Assembly (NCBI GenBank): GCA_043807585.1
Contig: JAZDFV010000013.1
Span: forward strand, 2,039 to 66,038
Direction of reading: 5' to 3'
Length of the DNA stretch: 64,000 nt
Origin: Candidatus Jorgensenbacteria bacterium
Lineage (GTDB): Bacteria; Patescibacteriota; Minisyncoccia; UBA6257; GWB1-50-10
The notes below the pieces were generated by a model. It worked only from the letters and a program-made list of their open reading frames with translations, did no database searches and was not told the origin of the DNA. A program made the translations under genes and the position numbers. Positions within the stretch are counted from its first letter, which is position 1. Each line of letters opens with the position of its first letter. Positions 1,777 through 34,846 of the stretch are shown in pieces.

Positions 1777-2241
1777 ATGCGATATGCCTCCGGCATGGTG
1801 TGGATTGTGGGGACGCTTGCCTTTCTTATGCTCCTGCAGTTCGGGCGCCTGTTCGCACTGTGGGGTATAGCACCCGATCTCCCGCTCGTGTTTTTCTTCG
1901 CGCTCGGGGTTTCCCGGGCGCCGTTTCCCGTCTTCGGCGCGGCGCTCGTAGGTTTTATCGCACTCTCGTTCCTCTGGGCGCCTTTTTGGATCGTGCAGGC
2001 GGCGGCGGTGGGGGTGGTGGCCGTTCTGGGGTACGTCGCCGTCCGCCATCTTACGGGCAACCGCTGGGTTGATATGGCGCTCCTCGCGGGTGCGGGTACG
2101 CTGGTGTACGCGCTCGGAGGATACGTTCTGGGGTTTGCACCGCTCTCGTGGGGCGTCCTCGGCGAAGCGGTATATAATACTCTGGCTGGATTTCTCGCGC
2201 TCGCACTTTTGCCGCGGCGCGGGATATTCTCTTCGGCATGA
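1777..2241 (+). CDS. mreD: Putative MreD-like membrane protein
   Basis: 154-aa polytopic hydrophobic protein between mreC and mrdA. Call is by position and hydrophobicity only. Confidence 0.45.
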   Translation: MRYASGMVWIVGTLAFLMLLQFGRLFALWGIAPDLPLVFFFALGVSRAPFPVFGAALVGFIALSFLWAPFWIVQAAAVGVVAVLGYVAVRHLTGNRWVDMALLAGAGTLVYALGGYVLGFAPLSWGVLGEAVYNTLAGFLALALLPRRGIFSSA

Positions 2242-4148
2242 CAAAGCACGAACCGCCGCTGGGATTTGAGGAAATGCTCTCCGACGGGGCGCGGGAGGAG
2301 GATCTCATGGAAGTGCCGCTCGCCCCGCTCGCTTTCCGCGCGTTTTTCGGGCTCGTGCTTGCGTTCCTGTCTCTCACGCTCGTGCAGCTGGGATACCTTG
2401 GCATCGCTCGTCACGGTTTTTACTCTGCGCGCGCACACACGAACATGTCCGATGAAAAGGTGGTGCTCGCGCCCCGCGGCATCATCTATGACCGTCAGGG
2501 AGAATCGCTGGTCAAGAATCTCCCCTCGGTGAACGCATTCCTCACCCCGCGGTTCCTTCCGGGGGCGCCGGAGGAGCGCCTGCGGACGTTTGAAACCATC
2601 GCCGCCGCGCTCGGCATTGACCGCACTGCGCTCGCGGAGCAGCTTGCGGCGCGGGACTGGGGCGTGAGCGAACGCGTCCCACTAAAGGAGGACCTCTCCC
2701 ACGACGAGGTGGTAGAACTCTCTTCCCGTTCCATTCCCGGGCTCACGCTGGAGCCGGCTTTCAAGCGGGTGCACCGGACTCCCTATGCGTTTGCGCACCT
2801 GATCGGCTACACCGGCCTTGCGGACGAGAGGGATCTGAAAGATCGGGCGCAGCTCACGGTGGAGGATCAGGTGGGGCGGGCGGGGCTCGAGGCGTTCTAT
2901 GACGGCGACCTTCGCGGAACGGACGGGCGCGAGATAACGTACCGCGATGCGCTGGGAAACATTGAAGAAGGCCAGAAGCTTTCAGCACCGCGCCCCGGGT
3001 CGGATCTTCACACCTCAATTGATGGTGACCTCCAAGAGTTTTTCTACCAGCGCCTCGCCGAGGCCCTCCGCGACTTGGGGCGCACCGTGGGAGTGGGGAT
3101 CGCCATGGATCCGCGGAACGGGGAAATTCTTGCGTTAGTTGGTCTCCCTGCGTTTGATTCCACCCGCGTGGCGGAGGCATTGAACGCTCCCGGTGAACCG
3201 CTCTTCAACCGCGCCGTTGCCGGGCTGTACAATCCCGGTTCCACCATCAAACCGCTCGTGGCAACCGCGGCGCTCACGGAGGGGGTGATCGATCCCGAGA
3301 AACAGATCTTTTCAAAAGGATACATTGAGATTCCAAATCCATACCACCCGGAATTGCCCAGCCGTTTTGTGGACTGGAAGCCGAACGGGTGGGTGAACGT
3401 CGTGGACGCGCTCGCGAAATCCAGTAACATCTATTTCTACGAAGTGGGAGGGGGATTTGAGGGTCAGCAAGGTTTGGGAATCGAACGTCTTAAGCGGTGG
3501 TGGGAAAAGTTCAAGCTTGGGAGCGTGACTGGCATTGACCTTGTTGGGGAGGCGAAAGGATTCCTTCCGGACCCCGCCTGGAAGGAGCGGGAGACGGGGG
3601 AGCCGTGGCGCATCGGTGACACCTACAACGTGTCGATCGGCCAGGGAGACCTCCTCGTTACCCCCTTGGAACTCCTGAACTACGTTAGTGCCATTGCGAA
3701 CGGCGGGGTTCTTTACCAGCCGCGGGTAGTGCGCGCCATCGTTGACGAGCGCGGCACAGTGGTTGACGAGCGCGGCACAGTGGTTGAACACGGTGCGGTG
3801 ACGGAAGAGAGAGCCACCTCCACAATACTTGCCGATCTGCGTGGAGAGATCGGGAACTCGGTTCGCTACGTTCAGGAAGGGATGCGCGAGGTGGTGCGTG
3901 CTTCCTACGGCACCGCGCACTCCTTAGCCACGCTCCCGTTCCCGGTGGCGGCGAAGACCGGCACCGCCCAGATCGAGGAGAACACCAAAATGAACGCCTT
4001 CTTCGTGGGGTATGCCCCCGCTGACCGCCCGCGCCTCGCGCTCCTCATCCTCGTAGAAAATGCGGTGCAGGGAAGTTTGAACACGGTGCCGGTGGCACGG
4101 GACGTTTTGCTGTGGTACTATGAGAATCGGTTAAAGAATAAAATATGA
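2238..4148 (+). CDS. mrdA: Penicillin-binding protein 2 (peptidoglycan D,D-transpeptidase)
   Basis: N-terminal TM anchor; transpeptidase motifs SxxK 'GSTIKP', SxN 'KSSNIY', KTG 'KTGTAQ'. Operon context mreCD-mrdA. Confidence 0.85.
   Translation: MTKHEPPLGFEEMLSDGAREEDLMEVPLAPLAFRAFFGLVLAFLSLTLVQLGYLGIARHGFYSARAHTNMSDEKVVLAPRGIIYDRQGESLVKNLPSVNAFLTPRFLPGAPEERLRTFETIAAALGIDRTALAEQLAARDWGVSERVPLKEDLSHDEVVELSSRSIPGLTLEPAFKRVHRTPYAFAHLIGYTGLADERDLKDRAQLTVEDQVGRAGLEAFYDGDLRGTDGREITYRDALGNIEEGQKLSAPRPGSDLHTSIDGDLQEFFYQRLAEALRDLGRTVGVGIAMDPRNGEILALVGLPAFDSTRVAEALNAPGEPLFNRAVAGLYNPGSTIKPLVATAALTEGVIDPEKQIFSKGYIEIPNPYHPELPSRFVDWKPNGWVNVVDALAKSSNIYFYEVGGGFEGQQGLGIERLKRWWEKFKLGSVTGIDLVGEAKGFLPDPAWKERETGEPWRIGDTYNVSIGQGDLLVTPLELLNYVSAIANGGVLYQPRVVRAIVDERGTVVDERGTVVEHGAVTEERATSTILADLRGEIGNSVRYVQEGMREVVRASYGTAHSLATLPFPVAAKTGTAQIEENTKMNAFFVGYAPADRPRLALLILVENAVQGSLNTVPVARDVLLWYYENRLKNKI
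3741..3782 (+). repeat. Perfect 21-nt in-frame tandem duplication (2 copies plus a partial third) inside mrdA
   Basis: gttgacgagcgcggcacagtg x2 encodes 'VDERGTVVDERGTV'. Confidence 0.8.
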
Positions 4149-4259
4149 CCAGTCGCCTATGAAAGGACTTGAGTTTTGGTTTTGCTTTCTTAATAGTCGG
4201 CGCCCTGCTCTTTATTATTGGGCGGGTTCCACTTGCGGAGGCGGCAGTTCAGCAGTTAG
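4078..4259 (+). repeat. Repeat R1: native mrdA 3' end (last ~22 codons plus stop), spacer, and 5' ~110 nt of the downstream secreted-protein gene
   Basis: ~181/182 nt, ~95% identical to R2 at 7531-7711. Confidence 0.85.
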
Positions 4260-6475
4260 TTTTCGATACGCTTGATAGTATGGAGGCAGTTCATCCCGCG
4301 CAGGGTATAGGCACTGGTTTGTCCGGTAGTTTTGGTTCTCTCACCATAAAATTTTTGGGTACTCGAACCTATTGTTCGTATGCGCCGGTGATTTTGGGAT
4401 ATCCTTCCGAAGCTTCTTGGCTTGCCGGTTACAATAATTATGTGAGTTATCGCAAGGCCAATCTCGTGCTTCCTTGTGGCAGTAGTGTTGGTGAAGCTAC
4501 GCATACTATTTCTGCCGGTGATTTTCCGGGCGGCCCGGTGGTTTTCAATCCATCGCTTTATTACGTGGTACATCTAGAAGGAGGCACCAGCGGTACTATT
4601 TTTGGAAAGGTACGAGGGTCGGGGATTGATGTTCTTGCTGGCGGCCAGTTTTGTAGATATATGTCTTGGCAAGACCCCGCGCCTTCCGGCTGTTCGCTGA
4701 CTGTGAAGGATATGTATTTCGATCTTCAAGGGGTTTCCCCGGCGCCTCCGGCTGGCGGCATTTCGATAAGTAATTTAGGGCAATTCAAATCTGATGCGAC
4801 GAGCACGATTCCGGAGGGCAGTGCAACGACTGAGGATACGATTGTGTTTGGCGCAACGCTTCAGTCGTCATCTACAGATCAATTGCAGCTGCAGGTGGAA
4901 GTACAACCGTCGAGTATGCCTTTCACGAACCAGCCTACTTCGACGAGTACACTAGTAAACTCCGGGGAGTTTGCCACCACAGCGGCAAATCTTTCTGACG
5001 GCGAATACCATTGGCAGGCAAGAGCAGCGGATAGCCAAAACAACGTTTCAGAGTGGCAGGAGTTTGGAACGCCAAGCAATACTGATTTCGTAATTCACCA
5101 AGTGCCGTTGTATACGCAGGTGATATCTGATTTTCCATCGCAGGCAGATACCAAAAATTGGGCCCGTGAAACTTACGCCGAAGGCAGAGGAAATATTGGG
5201 CCCGAAGATCAACGTTGCGGTCTTACTATAAGAGATTGCGGTTGCGCTATCACATCCGCGGTTATGGTTTTGCGTTATTATGACATTACAACGGGTACAG
5301 ATAATCAAGACGTAAACCCGCTTACTTTCAATAACTGGCTTAATGCTAATAATGGTTACGTCGGCAATGGCAATCTTGATTGGGTGAAGGTCGTGGAGTA
5401 CTCCAGAGATTCTCTTTCCGGCATTGCCCGTTTGCATTACGACGGAAGGCGTGACATCGGAGACAATTTCGGAACAACGTTTAACGATCTTGTTAACCTG
5501 ACGGATTCTTATGTAAATTCAGCGAGACCGGTTATTGCTTGGATTCCAAGCTTTGGCCATTTCCTTGTTGCCAACGAAAAACTCGCAAATAATTACGCAG
5601 TTAGAGACCCCGCTTGGTACAACACGAGAACCCTCGATTCGGAGACAACAAGCGCATTGCAGAGAATCCGTGATTACAACAATCAGTTTGAAGGAGTGCG
5701 TCTATACAGTCATTTCAGTGGCCCCGTGGACGGCATCTCTTTGAATCTTGCCTCGCCCGCGGAACTTCTCGTAATAGACCCGCAGGGGAGGCGATTAGGT
5801 AGAGACCCAATTTCCAATATTGTCTATAGCGAAATTCTAAACAGCTCTTACGGCAGAGATGGCATCAGTAATGCCGACACCGAAGTTCCCGACTCGCCGC
5901 ACATAGTCAAAAACATCTGGGTTCCAGAACCGATAACCGGCTCTTACGAAGTTAAAGTTATAGGCACCGCGAGTGGCACGTATTCATTGAACAGCTTGAT
6001 TTACGACGCAAGTAGCACGCCCCATTTAGCGACATTTAGTGGCATTACAGCCCCAAATAGCGAAACTGATTATACTTTAAATTATTCCACCAGTACGCCT
6101 CAAGAGATTTCAGTAAAAGAAGTTTATAAATTTCTTGGTTTTCTTCCTCCGGTTAAATCCGACGGAAGCGGAGTTTGCAGACTTGGCCGGACTTTGCCGG
6201 TAAAGTTCCAGCTGAAAAACGCCCTCGGCCAATTTGTAACGAATACAACGGCAACGCTTACGGTAGCAAAAATACAGGATGGCATTGTCGGAACTGAAGA
6301 AGTAGCATTTTCAAGCGGGAATTCCAATGCAGGAAATACTTTCAGATACGATTTCCAAAACGATCAATATATCTTTAATCTGAACACAGGCACAATGACC
6401 GCGGGTACTTGGCAACTCAAGCTAAAACTGGATGACGGTAAGAGTTATACGGTTTTGATCTCATTGAGAAATTAG
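4169..6475 (+). CDS. Secreted multidomain protein with papain-fold (peptidase C39-like) Cys/His/Asp domain and beta-sandwich modules (cassette gene A1)
   Basis: Signal-peptide-like N-terminus 'LIVGALLFIIGRVPLAEA' shared with 7612..9765. Shared middle domain 'VKDMYFDLQGVSPAPP...HWQARA.DSQNNVSEWQEFGTP'. 'RDCGCAITSAVMVLRYY...GHFLVANE...VRDPAWYN' suggests a C39-like cysteine peptidase. C-terminal 'KSYTVLISLRN' is shared with orphan module 11436..11639. Starts at a TTG because a 1-nt insertion relative to copy 2 breaks the ATG frame. Confidence 0.55.
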   Translation: MSFGFAFLIVGALLFIIGRVPLAEAAVQQLVFDTLDSMEAVHPAQGIGTGLSGSFGSLTIKFLGTRTYCSYAPVILGYPSEASWLAGYNNYVSYRKANLVLPCGSSVGEATHTISAGDFPGGPVVFNPSLYYVVHLEGGTSGTIFGKVRGSGIDVLAGGQFCRYMSWQDPAPSGCSLTVKDMYFDLQGVSPAPPAGGISISNLGQFKSDATSTIPEGSATTEDTIVFGATLQSSSTDQLQLQVEVQPSSMPFTNQPTSTSTLVNSGEFATTAANLSDGEYHWQARAADSQNNVSEWQEFGTPSNTDFVIHQVPLYTQVISDFPSQADTKNWARETYAEGRGNIGPEDQRCGLTIRDCGCAITSAVMVLRYYDITTGTDNQDVNPLTFNNWLNANNGYVGNGNLDWVKVVEYSRDSLSGIARLHYDGRRDIGDNFGTTFNDLVNLTDSYVNSARPVIAWIPSFGHFLVANEKLANNYAVRDPAWYNTRTLDSETTSALQRIRDYNNQFEGVRLYSHFSGPVDGISLNLASPAELLVIDPQGRRLGRDPISNIVYSEILNSSYGRDGISNADTEVPDSPHIVKNIWVPEPITGSYEVKVIGTASGTYSLNSLIYDASSTPHLATFSGITAPNSETDYTLNYSTSTPQEISVKEVYKFLGFLPPVKSDGSGVCRLGRTLPVKFQLKNALGQFVTNTTATLTVAKIQDGIVGTEEVAFSSGNSNAGNTFRYDFQNDQYIFNLNTGTMTAGTWQLKLKLDDGKSYTVLISLRN

Positions 6476-6477
6476 AA

Positions 6478-7521
6478 ATGATGCCCCTTTTCCAAAAGAA
6501 GTTTTTTTTTCTTCTTATATTACTTATTGTTGCAAGCGGTTTATTCCTTTTCTACATCTACTATTCAAAACCGCAACCTCCCGCCGTCACTTCTCAACCT
6601 CCTGTAAATGCAACCACCAGCCAGCAAGTCGCAGAAATGAGGGTTGGTCCATGTCTTGCTGATGATGAATATGCTGAGTATAGAGCCGAGAAAAGAGAAG
6701 GCGTTCCTAGTGTTGCTGCGATATTAGTAAAAGAGAAAGATTCTAATAATGAAGTTTTTGAATTTGGTATTGAGAATGTGAAAGTGGGCCACTATCATGC
6801 TTACGAAATTCATAAGTGTAATGTTTATATTGTGAGGGAATTTAATTATGATTATCGAAAAGGGAAAGCCTTACCAAATTACAAAATAGAAATATGGCAA
6901 TATCAGTATGACGGTAAGGGAAAGGAATTAGTAGAAATCGATGATTTTCGGGTTGACTCTGTAGAACGTTATATTGCTTTCCTTAAGGGCTATCTCGGCT
7001 CTTCTGATTACGCGATTGTGATTAAAGACCTCAAAACCCTAAATGACGTTTTTACCTTGCCAATGTCAGAGATTGAAAAACGAAATCTGGAAATCGTGGG
7101 CGATATGCAGTTTGAGAATTGGTCTAGCGATGGACGTTATCTTTGGGCTAATACTGCTTATGGCGCCAACACGCTTGGTTTCATTCGCATTGATACCAAA
7201 GATCGGAGCGTAAAACTTTTGCCTGCGCCAAAGGATGTTTTGGGCGGCGACGCCCTCAATCTTGAGAAGGGGTTAATCACCGTTCATCCGGGGAATGTTT
7301 GGTTCGGCGTCTCGGAGCTTGATGAACAGGAAAAAGCGAAGCGCCGCGCTCAAGGAATCGGCACCGAGCTTTATATATACAATCTCTTTACCGGAAAGCA
7401 GCTCTTCGTAGCAAGCACCACCGAACCTCTTTATTATTTCAAACCCAAGTGGCCCTCTGACACCGAACTGGAGTATTATTTTCCTTCGGGAGAGCGGGAG
7501 GTTTATAGGGTCGTAGAGTGA
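6478..7521 (+). CDS. Membrane-anchored hypothetical protein (cassette family B, copy 1)
   Basis: N-terminal TM anchor. Homologous to 11650..12735 through 'GPCLADDE', 'YAIVIKDL', 'GANTLGFIRID', 'LGGDALNLEKGLITVHPGNVWFG', 'QEKAKRRAQ'. Confidence 0.5.
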   Translation: MMPLFQKKFFFLLILLIVASGLFLFYIYYSKPQPPAVTSQPPVNATTSQQVAEMRVGPCLADDEYAEYRAEKREGVPSVAAILVKEKDSNNEVFEFGIENVKVGHYHAYEIHKCNVYIVREFNYDYRKGKALPNYKIEIWQYQYDGKGKELVEIDDFRVDSVERYIAFLKGYLGSSDYAIVIKDLKTLNDVFTLPMSEIEKRNLEIVGDMQFENWSSDGRYLWANTAYGANTLGFIRIDTKDRSVKLLPAPKDVLGGDALNLEKGLITVHPGNVWFGVSELDEQEKAKRRAQGIGTELYIYNLFTGKQLFVASTTEPLYYFKPKWPSDTELEYYFPSGEREVYRVVE

Positions 7522-7530
7522 ACCAGAGCC

Positions 7531-7711
7531 TGAACACGGTGCCGGTGGCGCGGGACGTGTTTCTGTGGTACTATGAGAATCGGTTAAAGAATAAAATGTG
7601 ACCAGTCGCCTATGAAAGGACTTGAGTTTTGGTTTTGCTTTCTTATAGTCGGCGCCCTGCTCTTTATTATTGGGCGGGTTCCACTTGCGGAGGCGGCAGT
7701 TCAGCAGTTAG
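7531..7711 (+). repeat. Repeat R2: displaced copy of the mrdA 3' end (with its own stop codon) plus start of cassette gene A2
   Basis: Encodes '...LNTVPVARDVFLWYYENRLKNKM*' versus native '...LNTVPVARDVLLWYYENRLKNKI*'. Confidence 0.85.
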
Positions 7712-9765
7712 ACGACTCCGTAACTTCTGTAACCTCATATTCTAATCCCGTACAGACCATAGGTGGCATTACTGGTACGCTCTCGTCATTGACTATTCAC
7801 TTCGCCTCACAAGGCAGTTTAATTATGGTGAAAATGATTGTGAGAGAATATGACACAATGCCCGAGGGTGCGCCTAACGGGTATTCACAGCAGTGGTATC
7901 CTATTTCCGATAATTATATGCGGGATGGGACCTCGGCAACGTTCACTGCTTCGGAATACTCAACGCCGGTAGTTTTCAATCCTGATAAATACTATGCTTT
8001 TATGTTTTATCAAATGGATAGATACCTTCAAGGTTCCGGTTCAGATGTTCTCCAAGGCAAGTTTTATTCAACTGGTACGACGGGTAATACTACGGAAGAT
8101 CCGAATGTGAAGGATATGTATTTCGATCTTCAAGGGGTTTCCCCGGCGCCTCCGGTCGGCGGCATTTCGATAAGTAACTTAGGGCAATTCAAATCTGACG
8201 CGACGAGCACGATTCCGGAAGGCGGCGCGACGACCGAAGGTATGATTGTGTTCGGCGCAACGCTTCAATCATCATCTACAGATCCACTGCAGTTGCAGGT
8301 AGAAGTACAACCGTCGAGTACACCTTTCACGAACCAGCCCACGGCGACAAGCACATTTATTGACCCGGGGGGTTTTGCTACTACGACAGTTACGAATCTG
8401 CCTAACGGCCAGTATCACTGGCAGGCAAGGGCGGTAGACAGCCAAAACAACGTTTCGGAGTGGCAGGAGTTTGGAACGCCAGGAAATATAGATTTTGAAG
8501 TAAGCATGCCTTTATCTACCAAGGCAGTGAATCTTGCAAAACTCGTTATTAACGGGCCATATTTAGGAGACGGCGACACTTTCGGTGGCAAGGGGTGGGA
8601 TCCTGTGCGGGCTGAATATGTAACTTCAAGCCTGATTCTAAGTGGATATCAGTATTGGAATAACAAATTGAGGATCATTGCTTTTGGGGCGGGTCTTGAC
8701 TGTTCTGGATTAGTGCAATGGGCATTTAACCGTTCCTTTGATCCCAAAAAGAGTCTGCTGAAGAATGTGGTTCGTTACGATGGGGCGGATGGGCAGTATA
8801 AAAATAATTCTGAAAACATAGCCGAGGCGGATCTGCGGCCAGCCGATTTATTGTTTCTCGATAAAGATGGTAATGGTGGAAAGGACCATGTTGCGATGTA
8901 TGTGGGAGATAATGGAACATTCGATGTTGTAGAAGCACATTCGCCAGCACGAGGTATCATTACCTCTAACAAAGCTGAGTTTAAGACAAGGGCTGGATTC
9001 ATTGGAAACCAAGGTTTTCGACGAGTAATTGCCAGTCCATCAATAGGAGGTCAAGTTAAAGTTAGCTCTCCAATTGATTTAATTGTGACCGACCCTGATG
9101 GATTTACTATTACACCAACGACGGTGATTCAAACCGACGAGGAGTATCTCCGAGAAGTACCGGGTGAACTTTACTACACGGAAAATGTGCTGGGGATTGA
9201 TGGTCGTCCGGAGGACATAGTTTACTGGCCCGCGCAGAAGATTGGTAATTATAGCATTAAAGTTCTCCCCGAAGCTGACGCTATGCCGACAGAAACTTAC
9301 TCAATGGAATTTACTGTTGGCGAGCAGACGATTGTTTTGGCAGACGATGTTCATTTAGATCAGATACCGTTGGAAGGTTATGGAGTTAACATCGCGAGTA
9401 GTGGTGCAATCAGCACTTTTGTGCCAGTAGCTATTGATATCAAGCCGAACAGTTTTCCTAATAGTATCAATTTAGGTTCCAAAGGCACTACCCCAGTGGC
9501 CATTCTCGGCTCTGCGACACTTGATGTTAAACAAATTGACCCGAACACAATTAAACTCGCAAATGCCCCAATCAAATTAAAGAACAACGGAAAGTTGATG
9601 ACAAGTTATGAGGACGTAAACGGAGATGGCTTTACCGACATGGTCGTTCATATTATTACCGCTGTGCTTCAATTAGCTCCCTCGGATGTGAAAGCGGAGC
9701 TGAGCGGTTTCCTCTTGGATAGAAGAGAAATAAAAGGGTCGGATTCGGTCAAAATTGTGCCATAA
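7612..9765 (+). CDS. Secreted multidomain protein with NlpC/P60 cysteine peptidase domain and beta-sandwich modules (cassette gene A2)
   Basis: Same N-terminus and middle domain as A1. 'DCSGLVQWAF...DHVAMYVG' matches NlpC/P60 Cys/His. PPC-like module 'IDLIVTDPDGFTITPTT...YSIKV'. C-terminal 'IKPNSFPNSINLGSKGTTPVAILGS' module. Confidence 0.6.
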   Translation: MKGLEFWFCFLIVGALLFIIGRVPLAEAAVQQLDDSVTSVTSYSNPVQTIGGITGTLSSLTIHFASQGSLIMVKMIVREYDTMPEGAPNGYSQQWYPISDNYMRDGTSATFTASEYSTPVVFNPDKYYAFMFYQMDRYLQGSGSDVLQGKFYSTGTTGNTTEDPNVKDMYFDLQGVSPAPPVGGISISNLGQFKSDATSTIPEGGATTEGMIVFGATLQSSSTDPLQLQVEVQPSSTPFTNQPTATSTFIDPGGFATTTVTNLPNGQYHWQARAVDSQNNVSEWQEFGTPGNIDFEVSMPLSTKAVNLAKLVINGPYLGDGDTFGGKGWDPVRAEYVTSSLILSGYQYWNNKLRIIAFGAGLDCSGLVQWAFNRSFDPKKSLLKNVVRYDGADGQYKNNSENIAEADLRPADLLFLDKDGNGGKDHVAMYVGDNGTFDVVEAHSPARGIITSNKAEFKTRAGFIGNQGFRRVIASPSIGGQVKVSSPIDLIVTDPDGFTITPTTVIQTDEEYLREVPGELYYTENVLGIDGRPEDIVYWPAQKIGNYSIKVLPEADAMPTETYSMEFTVGEQTIVLADDVHLDQIPLEGYGVNIASSGAISTFVPVAIDIKPNSFPNSINLGSKGTTPVAILGSATLDVKQIDPNTIKLANAPIKLKNNGKLMTSYEDVNGDGFTDMVVHIITAVLQLAPSDVKAELSGFLLDRREIKGSDSVKIVP

Positions 9766-9773
9766 AATCGTTT

Positions 9774-10361
9774 ATGCCCGTCCTTAGTTCAATCCATAAA
9801 AAACTACTCTTCCTGTTTGTTGTTATTGCCCTTGGTCTTATTTCAGTGTGGGTATTTATTAAATACCAACCCGCTCAGAAAGAACTACCGCCGGCACTGA
9901 TTTTAACTTCAACTCCCCAATCGTCGGCGGTTTCAGCCCCAATCTCTACCACCTCAACAAGCATCACGCAAGAAACCAAAACCTATCGCAATGAAAAGTT
10001 TGGTTTTGAATTTCAGTATCCGGGAAACTGGATTGTAAAAGAGAATACTTTTGGAAGTTATTACAGTAAATTTAATCTTGTGGTAAATCCCGAATTAGTG
10101 CGGAGTTCTAATTTTACATTTTCAATCAATATTGTATTGCCAGAGTTTCCTGAACGTAGTTTTCGCAACATAGAAAAAACAACTCCTGAAGTGATTGTTG
10201 ATGGAGTTGTGGGTACCAAATATCAGTATGAGTTTGAAGGTCAGCAGGAAACAGCGATTATATTACCACTCGGAGAATATAGGATGATTTTAGGAAGAGA
10301 TAGTGAACAATATTTGAATGAATTTAATCAAATTATTGCTTCATTCAAGTTTTTGAGTTGA
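9774..10361 (+). CDS. Membrane-anchored hypothetical protein (module shared with C-terminus of 10429..11439)
   Basis: N-terminal TM anchor. 'KTYRNEKFGFEFQYPGNW...YQYEFEGQQETAIILPLGEYRMILG...FNQIIASFKFL' is paralogous to the C-terminal half of 10429..11439. Confidence 0.45.
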   Translation: MPVLSSIHKKLLFLFVVIALGLISVWVFIKYQPAQKELPPALILTSTPQSSAVSAPISTTSTSITQETKTYRNEKFGFEFQYPGNWIVKENTFGSYYSKFNLVVNPELVRSSNFTFSINIVLPEFPERSFRNIEKTTPEVIVDGVVGTKYQYEFEGQQETAIILPLGEYRMILGRDSEQYLNEFNQIIASFKFLS

Positions 10362-10428
10362 TGATGAGTTACGAGAACGTTAACGAAGTTTGATGGAACT
10401 ATAATCAAGGGATCTGATTCTGTTCGGA

Positions 10429-11439
10429 TTGTCCCTTAAAGTTGAATCTATAAACATAGTGAACAAAAAGTTATTAATTACATTAATCGGCATTATCATG
10501 CTTGGTGCTAGCGTTGCGATTGCGGGGTGGTGGATGTTTAGTGGGCGACCTGATCGGAATCAATCAATGCCTTCTGTCCCGCCCACTGCTTCCTCTACTC
10601 CTTCTGCTGGGAGGAATAATATTCTGGGAGTGGGGATGATAACATCTAGTCAAGGCCCTATTGACCTCATCGTGACCGATCCCGATGGATACACTATCAC
10701 GCCAACAACGACCATTCCTTCTGATTTTGAATATCTTCGCCAAATCCCCGGAGTTCTCTATTATTCGGAAATGGAAAAAGGGGCAGATGGCAACCCAATT
10801 GACAGGGTTTATTCCTACACTGCTAAAATCGGTGATTATCTTATAAAAGTGTTACTGGCTTCTAACGCTACTCCGACTTCAACTTATAACCTCAATTTTT
10901 CAGTTGGGGATCAGTCCATAACGCTTGCTCAAAATACACCCGTAAGTCAAATACCGCAGCAAGGATACGGCGTGCGTGTGGCGCCGAATGGTTCGATTTC
11001 GCCTCTACCTTTGGTTCTAACTATTCCGTCTGTTCAAACAGGAAAAGCAGAGGGCATGAAAACATATATAAATACTGAGTTTGGTTTTGAGTTCCAATAC
11101 CCAGCAAATTGGGAGATACGAGAAAACGTTTTTGGGAGTCCGGCAAGTAAATTTAACTTGAATATTGTCCCGAATACCGAACGTTATCTTCCCGATCCGG
11201 TACTGATTAATGTTGTGACTTCTAGTTTTGGTGACCGCGCTTTTCAAGATTTGGAGAATATTACCTCCAAGATAACGGTTGGCGGTATTTCTGGCAAACG
11301 TTACGATTATGAGTTTGAGGGCATGCAAAGAACCTCAATCCTTTTACCGTTCGGCGAGCTTAGGATTATTTTGGGATCTGAGCAACGGTATGAAGATGTT
11401 TTTAATCAAGTTATTTCCTCATTCAAGTTCTTGAAATGA
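10429..11439 (+). CDS. Membrane-anchored hypothetical protein with PPC-like beta-sandwich module
   Basis: N-terminal TM anchor. 'IDLIVTDPDGYTITPTT...YLIKV' is paralogous to A2 residues ~480-590. Confidence 0.45.
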   Translation: MSLKVESINIVNKKLLITLIGIIMLGASVAIAGWWMFSGRPDRNQSMPSVPPTASSTPSAGRNNILGVGMITSSQGPIDLIVTDPDGYTITPTTTIPSDFEYLRQIPGVLYYSEMEKGADGNPIDRVYSYTAKIGDYLIKVLLASNATPTSTYNLNFSVGDQSITLAQNTPVSQIPQQGYGVRVAPNGSISPLPLVLTIPSVQTGKAEGMKTYINTEFGFEFQYPANWEIRENVFGSPASKFNLNIVPNTERYLPDPVLINVVTSSFGDRAFQDLENITSKITVGGISGKRYDYEFEGMQRTSILLPFGELRIILGSEQRYEDVFNQVISSFKFLK

Positions 11440-11639
11440 ATATCAAACCCGGCAGTTTTCCAAATAGCATCAATCTTAATTCAAAAGGCACCACTCCTGT
11501 CGCGATTTTCGGTTCCGCGACGTTCGATGTTAGACAAATTGACTCTACTACGATTAAACTTGCTAACGCCAGCGTAAAATTAAAAGGCAACGGCCAGCCA
11601 ATGAAGAGTTATACGGTTTTGATTTCTTTAAGGAACTAG
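11436..11639 (+). pseudogene. Orphan C-terminal module fragment (67 aa) of the cassette gene A family
   Basis: 'IKPGSFPNSINLNSKGTTPVAIFGSATFDVRQID...KSYTVLISLRN' joins the C-terminal module of A2 to the C-terminal tail of A1. Lacks an N-terminal gene body. Confidence 0.4.
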
Positions 11640-11649
11640 ACATGGCACC

Positions 11650-12735
11650 ATGACCTCATTATTTCGAAGGAGGGTTTTTTTGTTGTTTGTACTGCTCATT
11701 ATCGTGAGTGCGATATTTTGGTTTTACTTACGCTATTTCCGATTTCACACCGCTGACACTTCCCAGGTTCCAGGCAATGCCACCACGACGGAAGAAATTA
11801 ATAAAGTAAAACACGGCCCATGCCTTGCGGATGACGAAATGGTTGAATACGACCGTATAAGCCAACACCTACTTATTACACAACCGAAAGACATGTCGCC
11901 AGTTATTTATGTACGCAATAAAACTACAGGTGAGACGACGGTTAGCTTTCGACTTGATGACGTTATGGTTTTTGGACATCCGATGGAGATACACAATTGT
12001 GGTGTTTACGTTGTAAGAGCTTTCAATTATGACCCGCAAAAAGCTAAGCAAGAAATAGGTTTTCGTGATGAGTTGTGGAAATACGATTATCGGGGAGAGA
12101 AAAAAATGTTGATATTGCTTTCCGAGAAGCCGAAAGAATTCATTGACTATTACGGCCTTGAATTTCGTGTTGCCCCCACAGAAACCTACGTTTCTTTTAT
12201 ACGCGGGTACTTGGGTAAGGCCGACTATGCCATCGTCATTAAAGATTTAAACGCGCTCAGAGATATTTTGACTCTGACAATTGCAGAAATCGAAAAGCGC
12301 AATCCGGATTTAGTGCAGGATATCGCATTCGACGACTGGACCAACGACGGTCGCTACTTCTGGGTCCACACGCATTATGGAGCAAACACTTTGGGTTTCA
12401 TTCGCATAGATATGGAAACAAAAACCTTTGATTTATTTCCTGCGCCGAAAGATGTTCTGGGCGGCGATGCTCTCAATCTTGAAAAGGGATTAATCACGGT
12501 TCATCCAGGCAATGTCTGGTTCGGCATTGCCCAAGTGGAGGAACAGGAAAAAGCCAAGCGGAGAGCACAGAGCATCGGCACCGAACTGTACGTTGAAAAC
12601 CTTTTTACCCACGAGCGCCAGTTTGTGGCGAGCACCGCAGAACCGCTCCACTACTTCAAGCCGAAGTGGATTTCCGACACTGAACTGGAGTATTCCCTGC
12701 CGTCAGGGGAAACGAAGATGTATACAATTCCTTGA
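11650..12735 (+). CDS. Membrane-anchored hypothetical protein (cassette family B, copy 2)
   Basis: Paralog of 6478..7521. Confidence 0.5.
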   Translation: MTSLFRRRVFLLFVLLIIVSAIFWFYLRYFRFHTADTSQVPGNATTTEEINKVKHGPCLADDEMVEYDRISQHLLITQPKDMSPVIYVRNKTTGETTVSFRLDDVMVFGHPMEIHNCGVYVVRAFNYDPQKAKQEIGFRDELWKYDYRGEKKMLILLSEKPKEFIDYYGLEFRVAPTETYVSFIRGYLGKADYAIVIKDLNALRDILTLTIAEIEKRNPDLVQDIAFDDWTNDGRYFWVHTHYGANTLGFIRIDMETKTFDLFPAPKDVLGGDALNLEKGLITVHPGNVWFGIAQVEEQEKAKRRAQSIGTELYVENLFTHERQFVASTAEPLHYFKPKWISDTELEYSLPSGETKMYTIP

Positions 12736-12775
12736 TGAATGGGAGATAGGCAAACCATTGCGCCCAAAACTGGGA

Positions 12776-12847
12776 AACACCGTTCCGGTGGCGAACGACG
12801 TGCTCCTGTGGTACTATGAGCATCGTATAAAAACTGGTAACGGGTAA
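12776..12847 (+). repeat. Repeat R3: diverged displaced mrdA 3'-end remnant with own stop
   Basis: Encodes 'NTVPVANDVLLWYYEHRIKTGNG*', same orientation as mrdA. Confidence 0.7.
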
Positions 12848-12907: not shown

Positions 12908-13393
12908 TTGCCGGTCACCGCTGAGAAAATGCAAGACCATCAAGCATATCTCACCCGCGAGCGCTACGACGAGCTCGCTGTGGAGCTCAGCACGCTCAAA
13001 ACCGCCGGGCGGAAGGGCATCGCGGATCGCCTGAAGCACGCCAAAGATATGGGCGACCTCTCCGAGAACTTCGATTATCAGGAGGCTCGTGAGGAACAGG
13101 TGCTCCTCGAGCAGCGGATCGTGCAGATCGAGGAACTTTTGAAACGCTCCGTTATCATAAAGAAATCGGAGGGAGCGCAGACGGTGCGGATCGGTTCCAG
13201 GGTGACGGTGCAGAAGGATAATGCGGTGCTTGCGTATACCATCGTCGGTTCCAACGAGTCGCAACCCATGTCTGGGTTTATCTCCAACGAGTCGCCGTTG
13301 GGGAGGAGTATCTTGGGGAAAAAAGTGGGCGACACGGTGGCGGTGCGAATCCCCGCCGGCGAGGCGAAGTACCAAATACTCGCCATAGAATAG
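12908..13393 (+). CDS. greA: Transcription elongation factor GreA
   Basis: Coiled-coil N-terminus 'GDLSENFDYQEAREEQ' and FKBP-like C-terminal domain. Start may be the internal Met at 12929. Confidence 0.85.
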   Translation: MPVTAEKMQDHQAYLTRERYDELAVELSTLKTAGRKGIADRLKHAKDMGDLSENFDYQEAREEQVLLEQRIVQIEELLKRSVIIKKSEGAQTVRIGSRVTVQKDNAVLAYTIVGSNESQPMSGFISNESPLGRSILGKKVGDTVAVRIPAGEAKYQILAIE

Positions 13394-13396
13394 CGC

Positions 13397-14842
13397 ATGC
13401 TCCGCGACCTTATAGCCGAACGCAGGCGAAAGCTTGCCACCTACCGCGAGGCGGCTGACCCATACCCGGCTTCGGTGGCGCGCACGGTGACGCTGGGGGA
13501 CCTCACTGCTCGTTTCGGGACATTCGCGCGCGGGAAACGACGGGTGTCGGTGGTAGGCCGAGTGGTTTCATGGCGGGATCAGGGCAAGATCCTTTTCGCC
13601 GGTCTCACCGATGCTACCGGGAAACTCCAGGTGGTGATGACTGCGGAAGCGACCGCTCCCTTCACCGTCTTGAAGCACAGCGTCGATATCGGGGATTTTT
13701 TGGAGGTGCGGGGGCGGGCGTTCACCACCAAGCGCGGGGAGAAAAGCATCCTCGCCGAGCGGGCGCGCCTTCTCTCGAAAAGTGTGCGCCCCGTCCCGAG
13801 CGAATGGTACGGACTCTCGGACATTGAGACCCGGCTCCGGAAACGTTATTTGGACCTCCTCGTAAACCCCGAGGTGCGCGAGCTTTTCGTGAAGAAAGCG
13901 GAGTTCTGGCGGACGATGCGGGGAGTGCTCGTGAAAGACGGATTCCTCGAGGTGGAAACGGGGGCGCTGGAGCCGGTCCCGGGGGGCGCGGATGCGGAAC
14001 CGTTCGTGACCCACATGAACGCCCTTGACCGGGATTTCTATCTGCGCATCTCGCTCGAGCTCCCATTGAAGCGGCTCCTCGTGGGTGGGTATGAGAAAGT
14101 GTTCGAGATCGGGCGCGTGTTCCGCAACGAAGGGATGGATCGCGACCACCTCCAGGACTACACCCAGATGGAGTGCTACGCGGCGTACTGGGACCACCGG
14201 GATATGATGAAATTCGTGGAGCGGCTTTTCCGCGCGGTCGTGAAGCGCACCGTCGGGTCTCTCTCCACGAAGCACGGGGGTAAGGCGGTGGATTGGGGAA
14301 AGGAATGGCCGGTGGTGGATTACTTCGCGGTTTTCAGGAAGGCGACGGGGATTGATCTGGAGAACGCCACGCGCGACGCCCTCCGCCTTGAGGCGGAAAA
14401 GCGGAAACTGGCGCCGGAGCCGCGTGCAGGCCGCGGGCGTCTCATTGACATGATTTTCAAGAAAGCGGTTCGTCCCACGCTTGTGCAGCCCTCGTTCCTC
14501 ACGGGGCACCCGGTGGATATCTCGCCGCTCGCGAAGTCCGATCCGGAGCATCCGAAGAAGACACTTCGTTTCCAGGTAATGGCGGCAGGAATCGAGCTGG
14601 GGAACGGCTGGGCGGAGCTCAATGACCCCGAGGAGCAGCGGCGCCGGTTTGGCGAGCAGATGAAGCTCCGCGCCGCTGGCGACAAAGAGGCTCAGCGGTT
14701 GGACGAGGATTTCGTGGAAGCTTTGGAGTATGGTATGCCGCCCGCCGCCGGATTCGGGCTTTCAGAGCGCTTCTTTGCGGTCCTGATGGATAAACCCATC
14801 CGCGAAACGGTCATGTTCCCGCTTATGAAAGAGGAAAAATAG
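13397..14842 (+). CDS. lysS: Lysyl-tRNA synthetase, class II
   Basis: OB anticodon-binding N-terminus; class II motifs ('FRNEG', 'GIDR'-like) in the catalytic core. Confidence 0.9.
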   Translation: MLRDLIAERRRKLATYREAADPYPASVARTVTLGDLTARFGTFARGKRRVSVVGRVVSWRDQGKILFAGLTDATGKLQVVMTAEATAPFTVLKHSVDIGDFLEVRGRAFTTKRGEKSILAERARLLSKSVRPVPSEWYGLSDIETRLRKRYLDLLVNPEVRELFVKKAEFWRTMRGVLVKDGFLEVETGALEPVPGGADAEPFVTHMNALDRDFYLRISLELPLKRLLVGGYEKVFEIGRVFRNEGMDRDHLQDYTQMECYAAYWDHRDMMKFVERLFRAVVKRTVGSLSTKHGGKAVDWGKEWPVVDYFAVFRKATGIDLENATRDALRLEAEKRKLAPEPRAGRGRLIDMIFKKAVRPTLVQPSFLTGHPVDISPLAKSDPEHPKKTLRFQVMAAGIELGNGWAELNDPEEQRRRFGEQMKLRAAGDKEAQRLDEDFVEALEYGMPPAAGFGLSERFFAVLMDKPIRETVMFPLMKEEK

Positions 14843-14845
14843 AAC

Positions 14846-14890
14846 GATGACCATGACGATGACCATGACCATGACTATAACCATGACGAT
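14846..14890 (+). repeat. (ATGACN)n hexanucleotide tandem array in the lysS-serS spacer
   Basis: gatgaccatgacgatgaccatgaccatgactataaccatgacgat. Confidence 0.8.
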
Positions 14891-16363: not shown

Positions 16364-16526
16364 GTGAAGCTCCACTGGCTGACCTGCGCTTCGCCGAAGG
16401 CTTCGGCAAGGCGAGCGCCCGTGGCTTCTTTCCATTCGGGGTTCCGTGGAGCGCCTGCCCGCCGAAGCACGGGCGCAGGCGGGGAACCCCGCACCAGTCC
16501 GCCTTAGGCGGACGGTGCGGGGGTAA
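16364..16526 (+). other. Conserved ~165-nt element 'A' (copy 1); structured RNA or small antisense ORF
   Basis: Begins 'gtgaagctccac', ends 'ggtgcgggggtaa'. Highly similar to 31027-31198. Contains a 3' hairpin with compensatory changes between copies. Confidence 0.5.
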
Positions 16527-17354: not shown

Positions 17355-17417
17355 TCAGGGTTCCCTTGCCTCGTCGCAGATGAGCTTCGGTTCCTCGTCG
17401 CGCCAAGAGAGGCGCCC
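17355..17417 (-). repeat. Copy of the dnaE 3' end; 49 nt (17369-17417) identical to 55571-55619; encodes variant C-terminus '...EEPKLICDEAREP*'
   Basis: Direct orientation relative to dnaE (coding on minus strand) with its own in-frame stop. Confidence 0.75.
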
Positions 17418-17533
17418 CGAGACATTCCACTCGTATCTTGGTCTCCTGAAGCATGGGAACGCGCGCAGGTTGAAACGGCGCGCGCGGTATTTGTGTTATA
17501 ATTTTTCTGTACCAATGGATCCTCATTTTTAAA

Positions 17534-21714: not shown

Positions 21715-21800
21715 ACGCGATGCGAATATACTAATGCATACTAATTATACGAATAAAGGAATTCTCCATTAGTAGTATTCGTATGAATTCGTATATTAGC
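21715..21800. repeat. AT-rich MITE-like hairpin repeat (family member 1)
   Basis: Ends 'gcgatgcgaatatactaatgcatactaat ... attcgtatattagcatcgcg' form a long imperfect inverted repeat. Homologous to 28829-28923 and 45368-45466. Confidence 0.6.
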
Positions 21801-21806
21801 ATCGCG

Positions 21807-21833
21807 TTGGCACTTGACTTGTCCGAGTGCCAA
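21807..21833. promoter_or_regulatory. CIRCE-like HrcA operator (TTGGCACTT-N9-GAGTGCCAA) with overlapping -10 'tatact'
   Basis: Inverted repeat close to the CIRCE consensus TTAGCACTC-N9-GAGTGCTAA. Upstream of the hrcA-grpE-dnaK operon. Confidence 0.7.
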
Positions 21834-21999: not shown

Positions 22000-22067
22000 G
22001 GGGTGCTCGATTTTGTAGATAAATTTTCTTCTTCTACAGACTCGAAAATTTGTACAAAATCGGCATG
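22000..22067 (+). promoter_or_regulatory. Conserved ~68-nt leader / translation-start element (copy upstream of hrcA)
   Basis: ggggtgctcgattttgtagataaattttcttcttctacagactcgaaaatttgtacaaaatcggcATG. Same element precedes mraZ and ftsL. Preceded by a long IR (21903-21916 / 21992-22005). Confidence 0.6.
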
Positions 22068-22754
22068 AGAGATCGCACGAAGTCCATCCTTGAAGGCGCG
22101 GTCAAGGAGTTTATCCGCACAGGAGAGCCCATCACTTCAGAGCATCTTTTCGATGCTTTTGAGTTCGGCATCAAGCCAGCCATGATCCGGTGGGAGCTTA
22201 AGGAGCTTTCCCGCGCCGGCTACTTTTCCCAAAGGCACCCCTCCGGGGGGCGGTTTCCCACCAACCGGGCGTACCGCTTCTATGTGCAATCGCTTCTCGG
22301 CGCCGGTGTTCCCTCAATGCGGGGGTCGCTCGAGAGAGCGCTGCATGGATTCTTGGGGGAAGGGCCGCGGGAGCTCGTGGGAGAGATGGCGGATTACCTC
22401 GGAATGTTCTCCGCCGTGTATGAACCGCGGGCGGACCACGTCTATGAGAGCGGGCTCGAGGACCTCATGGCGGAACTTGATCTTGAGAATCGTCGCGAGC
22501 TCATGGAAGTCATCCGCGATATTGAGCTCCTCCCGGAGCGGATTATGGAGCAGGGAACGTGGCGGGGAGAGCGCGAGTGGCCCCAGGTGTTTGTGGGGGG
22601 GAACCCCTTCACCGCCAGCAGGCATCTCTCGGTGGTGGCGGGCAGGGTGCGTGGCGGGGAGAAGCCTCTCCTCCTCTTGGCGGTGGGTCCCACGCGGATG
22701 GACTATGAAAAATCCTTGCGGCTCTTCCGCGCACTCTGTGATTCGGTTTCATAA
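22065..22754 (+). CDS. hrcA: Heat-inducible transcription repressor HrcA
   Basis: wHTH N-terminus 'GEPITSEHLFDAFEFGIKPAMIRWELKELSRAGY'. Operon with grpE and dnaK. CIRCE upstream. ATG at 22065 preferred over the TTG at 22050. Confidence 0.75.
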   Translation: MRDRTKSILEGAVKEFIRTGEPITSEHLFDAFEFGIKPAMIRWELKELSRAGYFSQRHPSGGRFPTNRAYRFYVQSLLGAGVPSMRGSLERALHGFLGEGPRELVGEMADYLGMFSAVYEPRADHVYESGLEDLMAELDLENRRELMEVIRDIELLPERIMEQGTWRGEREWPQVFVGGNPFTASRHLSVVAGRVRGGEKPLLLLAVGPTRMDYEKSLRLFRALCDSVS

Positions 22755-28828: not shown

Positions 28829-28923
28829 GATACCAATATACTAATGCATACTAATGATACAAATAATGCTAATGATTCGTATTCATTCGTATCATTCGCA
28901 CCAATTCGTATATTAGCATCGTG
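28829..28923. repeat. AT-rich MITE-like hairpin repeat (family member 2) in the rplJ-rplL spacer
   Basis: gataccaatatactaatgcatactaatgatac ... attcgtatattagcatcgtg. Confidence 0.6.
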
Positions 28924-31026: not shown

Positions 31027-31198
31027 GTGAAGCTCCACGGGCTGACCTGTGCTTCACCGAAGGCTACCTCCTTCGCCGAAGTGGCTTCAACTACGAAGGC
31101 TGAGTCGGCAAGGCGAGCGCCTGTGGCTTCTCTCCATTCGGGATTCCGTGGAGCGAAACCCTGCACCGTCCCGCTTAGCGGGACTGGTGCGTGGGTAA
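31027..31198 (+). other. Conserved element 'A' (copy 2)
   Basis: Same sequence family as 16364-16526, with a 39-nt net insertion and a covarying hairpin. Confidence 0.5.
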
Positions 31199-34198: not shown

Positions 34199-34267
34199 CT
34201 GGGTGCTCAATTCCGTAGATAAATTTTTTTCGTCGACCGACTCAAAAATTTATACGTAATTGGCATG
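34199..34267 (+). promoter_or_regulatory. Conserved ~68-nt leader / translation-start element (copy upstream of mraZ)
   Basis: ctgggtgctcaattccgtagataaatttttttcgtcgaccgactcaaaaatttatacgtaattggcATG. Preceded by IR arms 34123-34135 / 34191-34203. Confidence 0.6.
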
Positions 34268-34696: not shown

Positions 34697-34846
34697 TGAC
34701 TATGACAATAACCATGACAATGAAGATAACCACGACTAATGACTATGACCAACTATGACTAATGACTATGACTAATGACCATGACTTATAACAAAGCGCA
34801 CGGTTCATAAGCAGGAGCTGTCATCGTCATACGTCATCGTCATTAG
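34696..34846. repeat. (ATGACN)n hexanucleotide array with complementary (GTCATC)n arm, forming a long spacer hairpin
   Basis: atgactatgacaataaccatgacaatga... then ...tgtcatcgtcatacgtcatcgtcat. Confidence 0.75.

Follow-up and report, generated by a model that had tools for sequence, protein, structure and literature searches.

How does a gene for a secreted peptidase, together with the gene of a membrane-anchored partner, come to lie in several versions between two housekeeping genes of a bacterium, in an array that is divided by spare copies of the end of one of these genes? The question is raised by a stretch of 64,000 nucleotides (nt) from Candidatus Jorgensenbacteria bacterium (GenBank assembly GCA_043807585.1, contig JAZDFV010000013.1, positions 2,039 to 66,038), which is called the window here. 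All positions are counted from its first nucleotide, all island genes and repeats described lie on the forward strand, and other genomes and loci are cited by L numbers. The array stands between mrdA and greA. We hold it to be probable, with some reserve, that it grew by successive imports through homologous recombination, in which displaced gene ends acted as homology arms and no integrase took part.

The backbone of the locus consists of mreB (25-1059), mreC, mreD, mrdA (2238-4148), the island, greA (12908-13393) and lysS (13397-14842). The target gene mrdA encodes PBP2 (TIGR03423 pbp2_mrdA, E 6e-136; Pfam Transpeptidase and PBP_dimer), and its last codons form the first repeat copy, R1; greA, recognised by profile matches, is the right flank of the insertion site. 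The island itself (~8.7 kb) reads mrdA..R1-A1-B1-R2-A2..B2-R3, where A denotes large secreted proteins and B their membrane-anchored partners. In full, the stretch between R1 and R3 holds A1, B1, A2, two PsbP-like genes (C1 and C2), the 3' remnant of an A gene and B2. In all six related genomes of the Jorgensenbacteria type mrdA is followed directly by greA (and then lysS) at a distance of 9-130 nt, so that the comparison of this interval which the preliminary description had called for finds the cassettes missing throughout. The amino acid identity of mrdA in these empty-site relatives is 91% (L094), 80% (L095), 79% (L001), 79% (L099), 68% (L100) and 66% (L101). The GC content is 40-51% in the island versus 58-65% in the flanks, which bears out the higher AT content noticed before. 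Because the site is empty in the relatives and the GC content is low, the island is an insertion: a foreign mosaic array that was acquired horizontally. A recombinase gene is absent from it, as all open reading frames (ORFs) in 4149-12775 could be assigned to A, B, C or the remnant. A scan of the island for promoters and terminators gave no more matches than expected from shuffled sequence, by which promoters or terminators of its own can be neither claimed nor denied.

The last 22-23 codons of mrdA occur three times, as direct copies which keep the reading frame and delimit the island, each with its own stop codon. R1 (4080-4148) is the functional 3' end of mrdA, R2 (7533-7601) is a displaced, R1-like copy between cassettes 1 and 2, and R3 (12776-12847) is a displaced copy adjoining greA. 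These places agree within 1-2 nt with those first reported, where R2 ended at 7600. All copies start at the identical nucleotide (AACAC, the N of ..LNTVPVA..) and translate to NTVPVARDVLLWYYENRLKNKI in R1, NTVPVARDVFLWYYENRLKNKM in R2 and NTVPVANDVLLWYYEHRIKTGNG in R3, in each case up to the stop. When the window is compared with itself, the identity over 56 nt amounts to 95% for R1/R2, 82% for R2/R3 (E 2.5e-8) and 79% for R1/R3 (E 1.3e-5). The repeat shared by R1 and R2 runs on into the first ~110 nt of the A genes and thus forms a tract of 182 nt with 97% identity (4078-4259 and 7531-7711), close to the 181 nt and ~95% given earlier. An exact core of 15 nt, CTGTGGTACTATGAG, is common to the three copies (4110-4124 in R1, 7563-7577 in R2, 12806-12820 in R3); an exact-match search for this 15-mer returns these three places only, with 0 expected by chance. 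The relatives read ...TATAAC at the core position. Judged from these matches, the core is likely to be the segment in which crossovers took place.

R1 and R3 differ from each other in a way that points to two ancestries. The left part of R1 is native-like over 45 nt, and its left 42 nt are 93% identical to L094, as is typical for the remaining mrdA; the tail which follows (AATCGGTTAAAGAATAAAATATGA, encoding NRLKNKI and the stop) is AT-rich, of a foreign type and unlike that of any relative. In R3 the left part, which has 63% GC, shows only 79% identity where the left part of R1 shows 93% to L094. The left 30 nt of R3 differ from R1 almost only synonymously, with five synonymous codons and one non-synonymous codon, and the tail HRIKTGNG (stop) is of the type native to the relatives: in 6/6 of them mrdA ends in HR, then I or M, and 4-5 further residues, for example HRMKTGSN, HRMRGNG or HRIAPSS. 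Because R1 joins a native-like left part to a foreign tail and R3 a diverged left part to a native-type tail, the copies appear to be recombinant gene ends drawn from different lineages. A crossover in the 15-nt core that the copies share would be expected to leave just such a reciprocal hybrid pattern. The earlier proposal that R3 is simply the oldest and most decayed copy does not hold, given the mainly synonymous differences of its left part and its native-type tail. Likewise set aside was an origin by homology-facilitated illegitimate recombination alone, in which R3 would be native throughout, since the left part of R3 has diverged at synonymous sites.

The same kind of divergence is seen when R1/R3 of the window and the repeats of five other loci are taken together: the codons of the copies differ by 29 synonymous and 13 conservative non-synonymous changes. 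Because decay would give mainly non-synonymous changes, the copies differ as orthologues do and not as a duplicate decaying in situ. One repeat, that of L074, is an old relic and carries a frameshift.

The flanks of the island also seem to have different histories. Relative to L094 the window has a nucleotide identity of 94.8% in mreD and 91.5% in mrdA, on the left, versus 78.7% in greA on the right, the latter comparison covering only 94 nt. As a control, the pair L095 and L001 keeps 90-93.5% identity across the whole region. A more detailed record of an exchange comes from metagenomic loci with a cassette of the same family, L057/L058 and L059/L060, which share the cassette block with one mismatch in 4630 nt, while their flanks are 77-88% identical. 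The right breakpoint of L057/L059 lies inside the downstream repeat, with mismatches at third codon positions from position 5593 on; the left one precedes the upstream repeat by ~110 nt, within the body of the upstream gene. These breakpoints fit a linear fragment with both arms from one host gene better than a fixed core of an attachment (att) site; the exact 15-nt core of the window, taken alone, would fit such a site. The simple model of a Campbell-type circle was set aside as sole mechanism, because the block shared by L057 and L059 begins upstream of the upstream repeat.

Could the repeats have arisen in place, either by an insertion resembling transposition that duplicated an unusually long stretch of its target site, or by tandem duplication through unequal crossing-over, with later decay of the non-functional copies? 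R2 and R3 begin at the same nucleotide, R1 and R2 are nearly identical, and a lineage-specific GAG codon (E) stands in all three copies where all relatives have AAC, which are the features to be expected of a local origin. However, a decaying relic would not be expected to show the synonymous bias just described (29 versus 13). R1 and R3 end in gene tails which are homologous but not the same, and the identity between A1/B1 and A2/B2 is only ~52%, with different domains in the two. In addition, the identity of the flanks to L094 changes across the site and no transposase is present. We therefore regard a purely local origin as very unlikely. Scarcely conceivable, finally, is an artefact of the assembly. 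The source is indeed a contig of a metagenome-assembled genome (MAG), and repeats can misjoin contigs; but the copies are imperfect (79-97%), short compared with the read length and internal to a 76-kb contig, and the same architecture is found in many independent assemblies or samples (L011/L012, L057-L060, L065/L066).

Similar repeats are not confined to mrdA. We fetched 80 metagenomic loci which encode B and compared each with itself. Direct repeats of at least 45 nt bracket nine of the 23 distinct cassettes with enough flanking sequence (ten counting the window), versus 1.4% of 6845 random placements. These flanking repeats measure 56-330 nt, and each is the end of the adjacent host gene. 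Five are 3' ends: of the 16S rRNA gene in L011 (300 nt, 99%; reproduced in the independent contig L012), of leuS in L018 (79 nt, 86%), of ctpA, encoding an S41 peptidase, in L065 (66 nt, 86%) and of unannotated genes in L057 (75 nt, 93%) and L074 (117 nt, 89%). Two are 5' ends, namely of gyrA in L033 (114 nt, 91%) and of secY in L093 (61 nt, 95%), where the A ORF starts inside the copy derived from secY. In L025 (98 nt, 84%) and L030 (75 nt, 98.7%) the repeats are non-coding or RNA-like ends. In repeats of the 3' type the copies cease to be homologous a few codons ahead of the stop, beyond which they end in short tails of their own. Only A and B lie between the repeats in L018, L057, L033 and L093, and the other repeat-flanked cassettes contain A and B with an extra A, a PsbP-like or a DUF6946 gene. 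No flanking repeats were found for L009, L020, L048-L050, L026, L096-L098 and others. Cassettes of the repeat-less type are wedged in the same orientation at conserved genes, namely at coxB/coxA (in three genomes), at dnaK/dnaJ, after ftsZ and at rplO.../rpoD.

The architecture recalls integrative islands, and a second explanation is accordingly that one or several such islands entered by a recombinase which acted in trans or has since been lost. Their attP would mimic the 3' end of mrdA, and R1, R2 and R3 would represent attL, a hybrid att and attR, generated by tandem accretion. The geometry does match islands that target gene ends: there are gene-end repeats, a replacement tail supplied by the element, hybrid copies and a short identical core, besides the empty sites of the relatives and the GC bias. 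The repeat of L025 ends in ...GCGCACCA, like the end of a tRNA or tmRNA. Searches with ARAGORN and Rfam identified none of the RNA-like repeats of L025, L030 and L054. Against such islands stands that no recombinase was found inside any of the ~10 independent repeat-flanked cassettes and that the repeats and their targets are mutually unrelated, with no conserved end motif visible. The left breakpoint of L057/L059, ~110 nt upstream of the repeat, does not fall in a core. A scan of the 2.9 million viral contigs of IMG/VR revealed no relatives of B, so that carriage by phages is unsupported as well. Taken together we consider entry by a site-specific recombinase unlikely.

Some further observations were made at these loci. 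In L054 an array containing two B genes is surrounded by at least four copies of a sequence resembling a tRNA 3' end (GGTTCGAGTCCTGCCGCCGGAGCA…; 3990-4047, 5537-5662, 6301-6403 and 13525-13684), where no tRNA is called by ARAGORN or by Rfam. In L093 a second pair of direct repeats (1278-1360 and 6846-6931; 86 nt, 80%) brackets ribosomal-protein genes just upstream of the secY-associated cassette. The 16S rRNA gene adjoining the cassette of L011 (1-2966) is interrupted by insertions encoding LAGLIDADG endonucleases, with a match resembling a group II intron, and the 300-nt repeat begins inside the last of these insertions, ~50 nt before the 3' exon. L065 and L066 contain an identical A-B block (4305 nt, 100%) in different upstream contexts in two samples: in L066 an intact gapA lies directly upstream of A, whereas in L065 this place is taken by ctpA, a further A gene (A') and no more than the terminal 26 nt of gapA (L065 4811-4836, corresponding to L066 6873-6898). 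A gene-end fragment seems to travel with this cassette; more than one history may account for the difference between the two loci. In L066 a repeat of ~110 nt (82-213, 1411-1520, 3133-3263) stands in frame inside three unrelated genes, among them the enolase gene, and encodes ..KEDKSSSSPTEA..ESEALFDFAA...; it recalls the Rickettsia palindromic elements, which insert into coding sequences.

Recombination between lineages would account for the window in the following way. Cassettes without a recombinase would move by ordinary RecA-type homologous recombination, plausibly after natural transformation. In Saccharibacteria, natural transformation with subsequent homologous recombination has been demonstrated, and throughout the Candidate Phyla Radiation (CPR) com genes are conserved (PMC10633639). 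The incoming DNA would have carried a diverged mrdA 3' end ahead of the cassette and another copy behind it, and the crossovers would have fallen in or near the 15-nt core, WYY(E), shared by the three copies. By the first import mrdA would have gained the short tail NRLKNKI, and an mrdA end would have been pushed downstream to become R3. A second import, or recombination or gene conversion over the repeat and the first 110 nt of A, might then have produced R2 and the second cassette; the mosaics, and the A remnant that precedes B2, would stem from internal recombination among A genes. Because the left part of R3 has 63% GC, its immediate donor may have been a high-GC relative, the cargo itself being low in GC. 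The displaced gene end would in this manner become a portable second homology arm, and with both arms from one conserved gene cassettes could be added, replaced or lost. Of the successive integrations that had been suggested from the first reading of the sequence, the displacement of the mrdA end by successive events is retained, while the events themselves would be driven by recombination and free of an integrase.

Several points weigh against such imports. About half of the cassettes have no detectable flanking repeat, and the model offers no step by which the first repeat would form at a new target gene. The discontinuity of the flanks rests on the short greA stretch, and the breakpoints of L057/L060 fit the replacement of a resident cassette equally well as an insertion into a naive site. 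For RecA-dependent exchange 15 identical nt make a short core, and one that would fit a site-specific recombinase, too. Finally, the cassette of L098 sits in an island of defence and recombinase genes, with large serine recombinases at a distance of 5-9 kb, which also speaks for the integrative islands discussed above.

The cargo is not peculiar to the window. For B a word-indexed search yielded 163 matches, and 507 clusters were obtained when 1.84 billion representatives were searched with a profile; all matches with a named source belong to CPR lineages. In ~45 loci B has immediately upstream of it the large gene of a secreted A protein, which overlaps it or lies a few nt apart. The N-terminal binding domains of A are variable (NosD/beta-helix, NHL, Kelch, RCC1 or LamG) and are followed by an Ig-like domain. 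The peptidase module is usually C39-like, in A2 it is NlpC/P60 and in one other case an M6 metalloprotease domain; the remaining parts are a beta-sandwich and a PxKF or other C-terminal domain. A and B form a conserved two-gene module that is widespread in CPR/Patescibacteria, composed of a Sec-secreted multidomain papain-fold peptidase and a membrane-anchored beta-propeller. PsbP-like accessory genes are optional in these cassettes; PsbP_2 genes also occur downstream of B in L011 and L012. In the open-access literature we found no paper which describes this cassette family, or gene-end repeats used in such a manner in CPR.

In the window, A1 (4169-6475) comprises a signal peptide, a variable N-terminal domain, an Ig-like domain, a C39-like peptidase with Cys, His and Asp, a beta-sandwich and a PxKF C-terminal domain (E 1.5e-19). 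A2 (7612-9765) agrees with A1 in its signal peptide and its Ig-like middle domain; its predicted peptidase is of the NlpC/P60 type, and its C-terminal module is another one. Profile searches place both enzymatic modules above their cut-offs, Peptidase_C39_2 in A1 with 27.2 bits (cut-off 24) and NlpC/P60 (PF00877) in A2 with 35.8 bits (curated cut-off 23), in agreement with the preliminary description, as is the common signal peptide and middle domain of the two (53% identity over 320 amino acids). By its papain-like fold with a conserved Cys/His(/Asp) triad A1 belongs to the papain-fold enzymes. An assignment to Peptidase C39 proper, the N-terminal domain of ABC exporters which processes bacteriocins by cutting off their double-glycine leaders, was rejected, as A1 is a secreted protein with a signal peptide and without ABC transporter domains. 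A sequence search of the PDB gave no matches for A1 and a weak match of A2 to the cell-wall hydrolase 7cfl (E 1.6e-3). Compared with A2, A1 has a 1-nt insertion in codon 11 (CTTAATAG versus CTTATAG). The ATG of the A2 type (4160) is consequently out of frame and A1 must start at TTG 4169; the signal peptide read from this TTG has no charged N-region. The insertion could be a sequencing error or early pseudogenisation.

In B1 (6478-7521) an N-terminal transmembrane helix is joined by a disordered linker to an extracytoplasmic beta-propeller. In the AlphaFold2 model, which has a predicted local distance difference test score (pLDDT) of 89.8, the helix spans residues 4-30. Foldseek finds propellers of TolB, of S9 peptidases and of the Kelch type to be similar to the model, but the TM-scores reach only 0.3-0.47, a likeness at the level of the fold; model and matches together assign B to the beta-propellers. 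No Pfam or NCBIfam match was obtained for B. Membership in the TolB family proper was rejected for want of a family match, because of these TM-scores and because the N-terminal transmembrane anchor takes the place of the TolB N-domain. B2 (11650-12735) is 52% identical to B1 (E 2e-135), which together with the helix in the model upholds the membrane-anchored partner family that had been described. For both, identical proteins are recorded at NCBI from a MAG of Candidatus Jorgensenbacteria (V1696_03100 and V1696_03120, on a contig of 76,350 bp). Exact look-ups with the MrdA and B1 proteins of the window returned no record.

The remaining island genes are modules and fragments of the same set. 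C1 (9774-10361) is a membrane-anchored PsbP-like accessory protein (Pfam PsbP_2, 28.2 bits versus a cut-off of 27). In C2 (10429-11439) a membrane anchor is combined with two modules, a beta-sandwich like that of A2 (56% identity to A2 residues 487-610) and a PsbP-like one (48% identity to C1), so that the two genes earlier listed as standalone modules have the PsbP-like module in common and the second contains an A2-like module as well. An ORF of 67 amino acids (11436-11639) matches residues 606-666 of A2 with 72-75% identity and closes with the tail of A1, KSYTVLISLRN, just as the splice of A2 module and A1 tail had been read. By this similarity it is a 3' remnant of a former A gene, the lost partner of B2, which keeps the conserved junction of A tail and B start. 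This junction is also recovered as a repeat (D9, 6440-6480 and 11604-11644, 85% identical).

What the module does can so far be approached through its folds. A and B likely form a cell-surface peptidase complex which acts on cell-wall or surface peptides; that the proteins are secreted or surface-bound hydrolases is suggested by the exchange of C39-like, NlpC/P60 and M6 modules and by the similarity to PeiR. B likely tethers or assists A and is not a specific immunity protein. We infer this because B is strongly conserved, with an identity of ~40-58%, across A partners which differ in their enzymatic or binding domains (C39, beta-helix, Kelch, NHL). By a contrary reading, B could be an immunity-like or inhibitor protein for a conserved part of A.

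A further explanation makes the island a polymorphic toxin/immunity locus, in which the A proteins are secreted antibacterial toxins, B provides immunity and the fragments are orphan modules for recombinational switching. A1 and A2 are indeed mosaics with common 5' regions, their enzymatic modules are papain-folds of the cell-wall hydrolase type, an orphan A 3' fragment lies directly ahead of B2, and arrays with displaced ends recall those of Rhs and of type VI secretion (T6SS) effectors (PMC5361080). However, A varies in its N-terminal and central parts (NosD, Kelch, NHL, C39, NlpC/P60, M6), while the C-terminal PxKF tail beside B is conserved, and B does not co-vary with the putative toxin but keeps its identity across the different partners named above. 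A2 is without an adjacent B gene, the delimiting repeats belong to a housekeeping gene and not to an effector gene, and a PADLOC scan for defence systems found no matches. Of the likeness to polymorphic toxins drawn in the preliminary description the orphan module before B2 stands, whereas the place of the variation and the constancy of B speak against it, and we regard a toxin/immunity locus as improbable.

The closest known process is nevertheless found among such effectors, in the C-terminal displacement of Rhs and the sequential displacement of T6SS effector-immunity genes in V. cholerae. There, DNA recombining in a conserved gene brings in a new 3' end and cargo, and the old end shifts downstream, which results in arrays of orphan ends without an integrase (PMC5361080, which cites Jackson et al. 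2009). As the mechanism, homologous recombination has been proposed, perhaps in the form of homology-facilitated illegitimate recombination (PMC5361080). The window shares with these arrays the stacked mrdA 3' ends, each followed by cargo, the lack of a recombinase, the mosaic ancestry and the breakpoints at a conserved segment. It differs in that the displaced end is that of an unrelated housekeeping gene, only 56-330 nt are duplicated and the cargo is a complete two-gene module; versions with a 5' end exist, too.

Integrase-mediated islands at gene ends (tRNA and tmRNA genes, or dusA with its specific integrases, PMC4482086) likewise have gene-end repeats, a replacement end, hybrid att-like copies, tandem accretion, empty sites and atypical GC. 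Here, in contrast, no integrase lies in or beside the cassettes, one cargo family has many unrelated targets and at least one breakpoint falls outside the repeat. Gene cassettes of integrons are also small, apparently promoterless, co-oriented units stacked downstream of a fixed point, but in our case there is no IntI, attI or attC and the boundaries are copies of host gene ends. The pneumococcal capsule loci (dexB-aliA) and O-antigen loci are replacement-type flexible islands, which are swapped by homologous recombination after transformation through their conserved flanks. Both they and the island contain variable, surface-related cargo between conserved genes and have flanks of mosaic ancestry; unlike them, the A-B cassette is a small two-gene cargo found at many loci, where a short duplicated gene end would supply the second arm when only one flank is conserved. 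The microcin H47 island of E. coli (PMC3191183, PMC5426353) is described as small, bordered by imperfect direct repeats and mobile without a site-specific recombinase of its own. It is confined to one locus of one species, and its short direct repeats are reported to recombine independently of RecA (PMC5426353).

The variety of targets bears on the question whether the position within the mre/mrd operon means anything. It was pointed out before that hydrolase-like genes next to the peptidoglycan operon are noteworthy. Because the same cassette adjoins 16S rRNA, leuS, ctpA, gyrA, secY, coxB/coxA, dnaK/dnaJ and ftsZ elsewhere, this position is incidental and reflects the recombination substrate instead of the function. 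One may go a step further, to a picture that we offer tentatively, as possible more than as probable: the CPR cassette as a natural 'knock-in construct' without a recombinase. The spare end of the neighbouring gene would give the second arm, so that transformation and RecA would suffice for insertion regardless of synteny as well as for stacking, swapping and deletion, and the cargo would be a surface tool that evolves fast and is traded horizontally among episymbionts.

Gene exchange in CPR/Patescibacteria is little known; the genomes are tiny and contain few recognisable mobile elements, and the ~10 loci with gene-end repeats point to a simple route. If exchange of this kind takes place, it would account for foreign low-GC surface genes which interrupt the mreBCD-mrdA, dnaK-dnaJ, coxB-coxA and rplO-secY operons. 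It would also define an unannotated, CPR-wide A-B module as a strong candidate for interaction with hosts or competitors, and would suggest a design of genetic tools for competent CPR bacteria that need homology to one gene only.

A few features of the window lie outside the island. Within the same operon, mreB (25-1059) has only 43% GC versus 60-65% in the adjacent mreC, mreD and mrdA, with a sharp break in composition at ~1000-1056, and given this break mreB itself may have been replaced horizontally. Another variable spot of the operon is the interval between mreB and mreC, where an extra unannotated gene is present in the relatives L099 (3755-4597, 280 amino acids) and L100 (2605-3276, 223 amino acids) and absent from the window. 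Further patches of low GC lie at 32-34 kb (36-39%) and 43-45 kb (46%).

Several other repeats are dispersed over the window. An AT-rich imperfect palindrome of ~90 nt (…CGATACCAATATACTAATGCATACTAATGATACGAAT…ATTCGTATATTAGCATCG) occurs in three copies with 77-82% identity (21719-21807, 28829-28921, 45373-45461) and has the look of intergenic miniature inverted-repeat transposable elements (MITEs) or repetitive extragenic palindromic (REP) sequences. The short repeats outside the island, including this palindrome, were tested as tRNA genes and are not tRNAs. An element of ~70 nt ending in GGCATG is found in three copies with 80-85% identity (22001-22068, 34201-34267, 35928-35995), each ahead of one of three genes, and resembles a shared 5' leader or promoter. 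Two pairs of dispersed repeats lie at 17369-17423 and 55571-55625 (55 nt, 98%) and at 16395-16453 and 31094-31155 (62 nt, 90%). Intergenic runs of the hexamer (ATGACN)n are located at 14843-14890, 34696-34772 and 60389-60467, the first of them directly after the stop codon of lysS.

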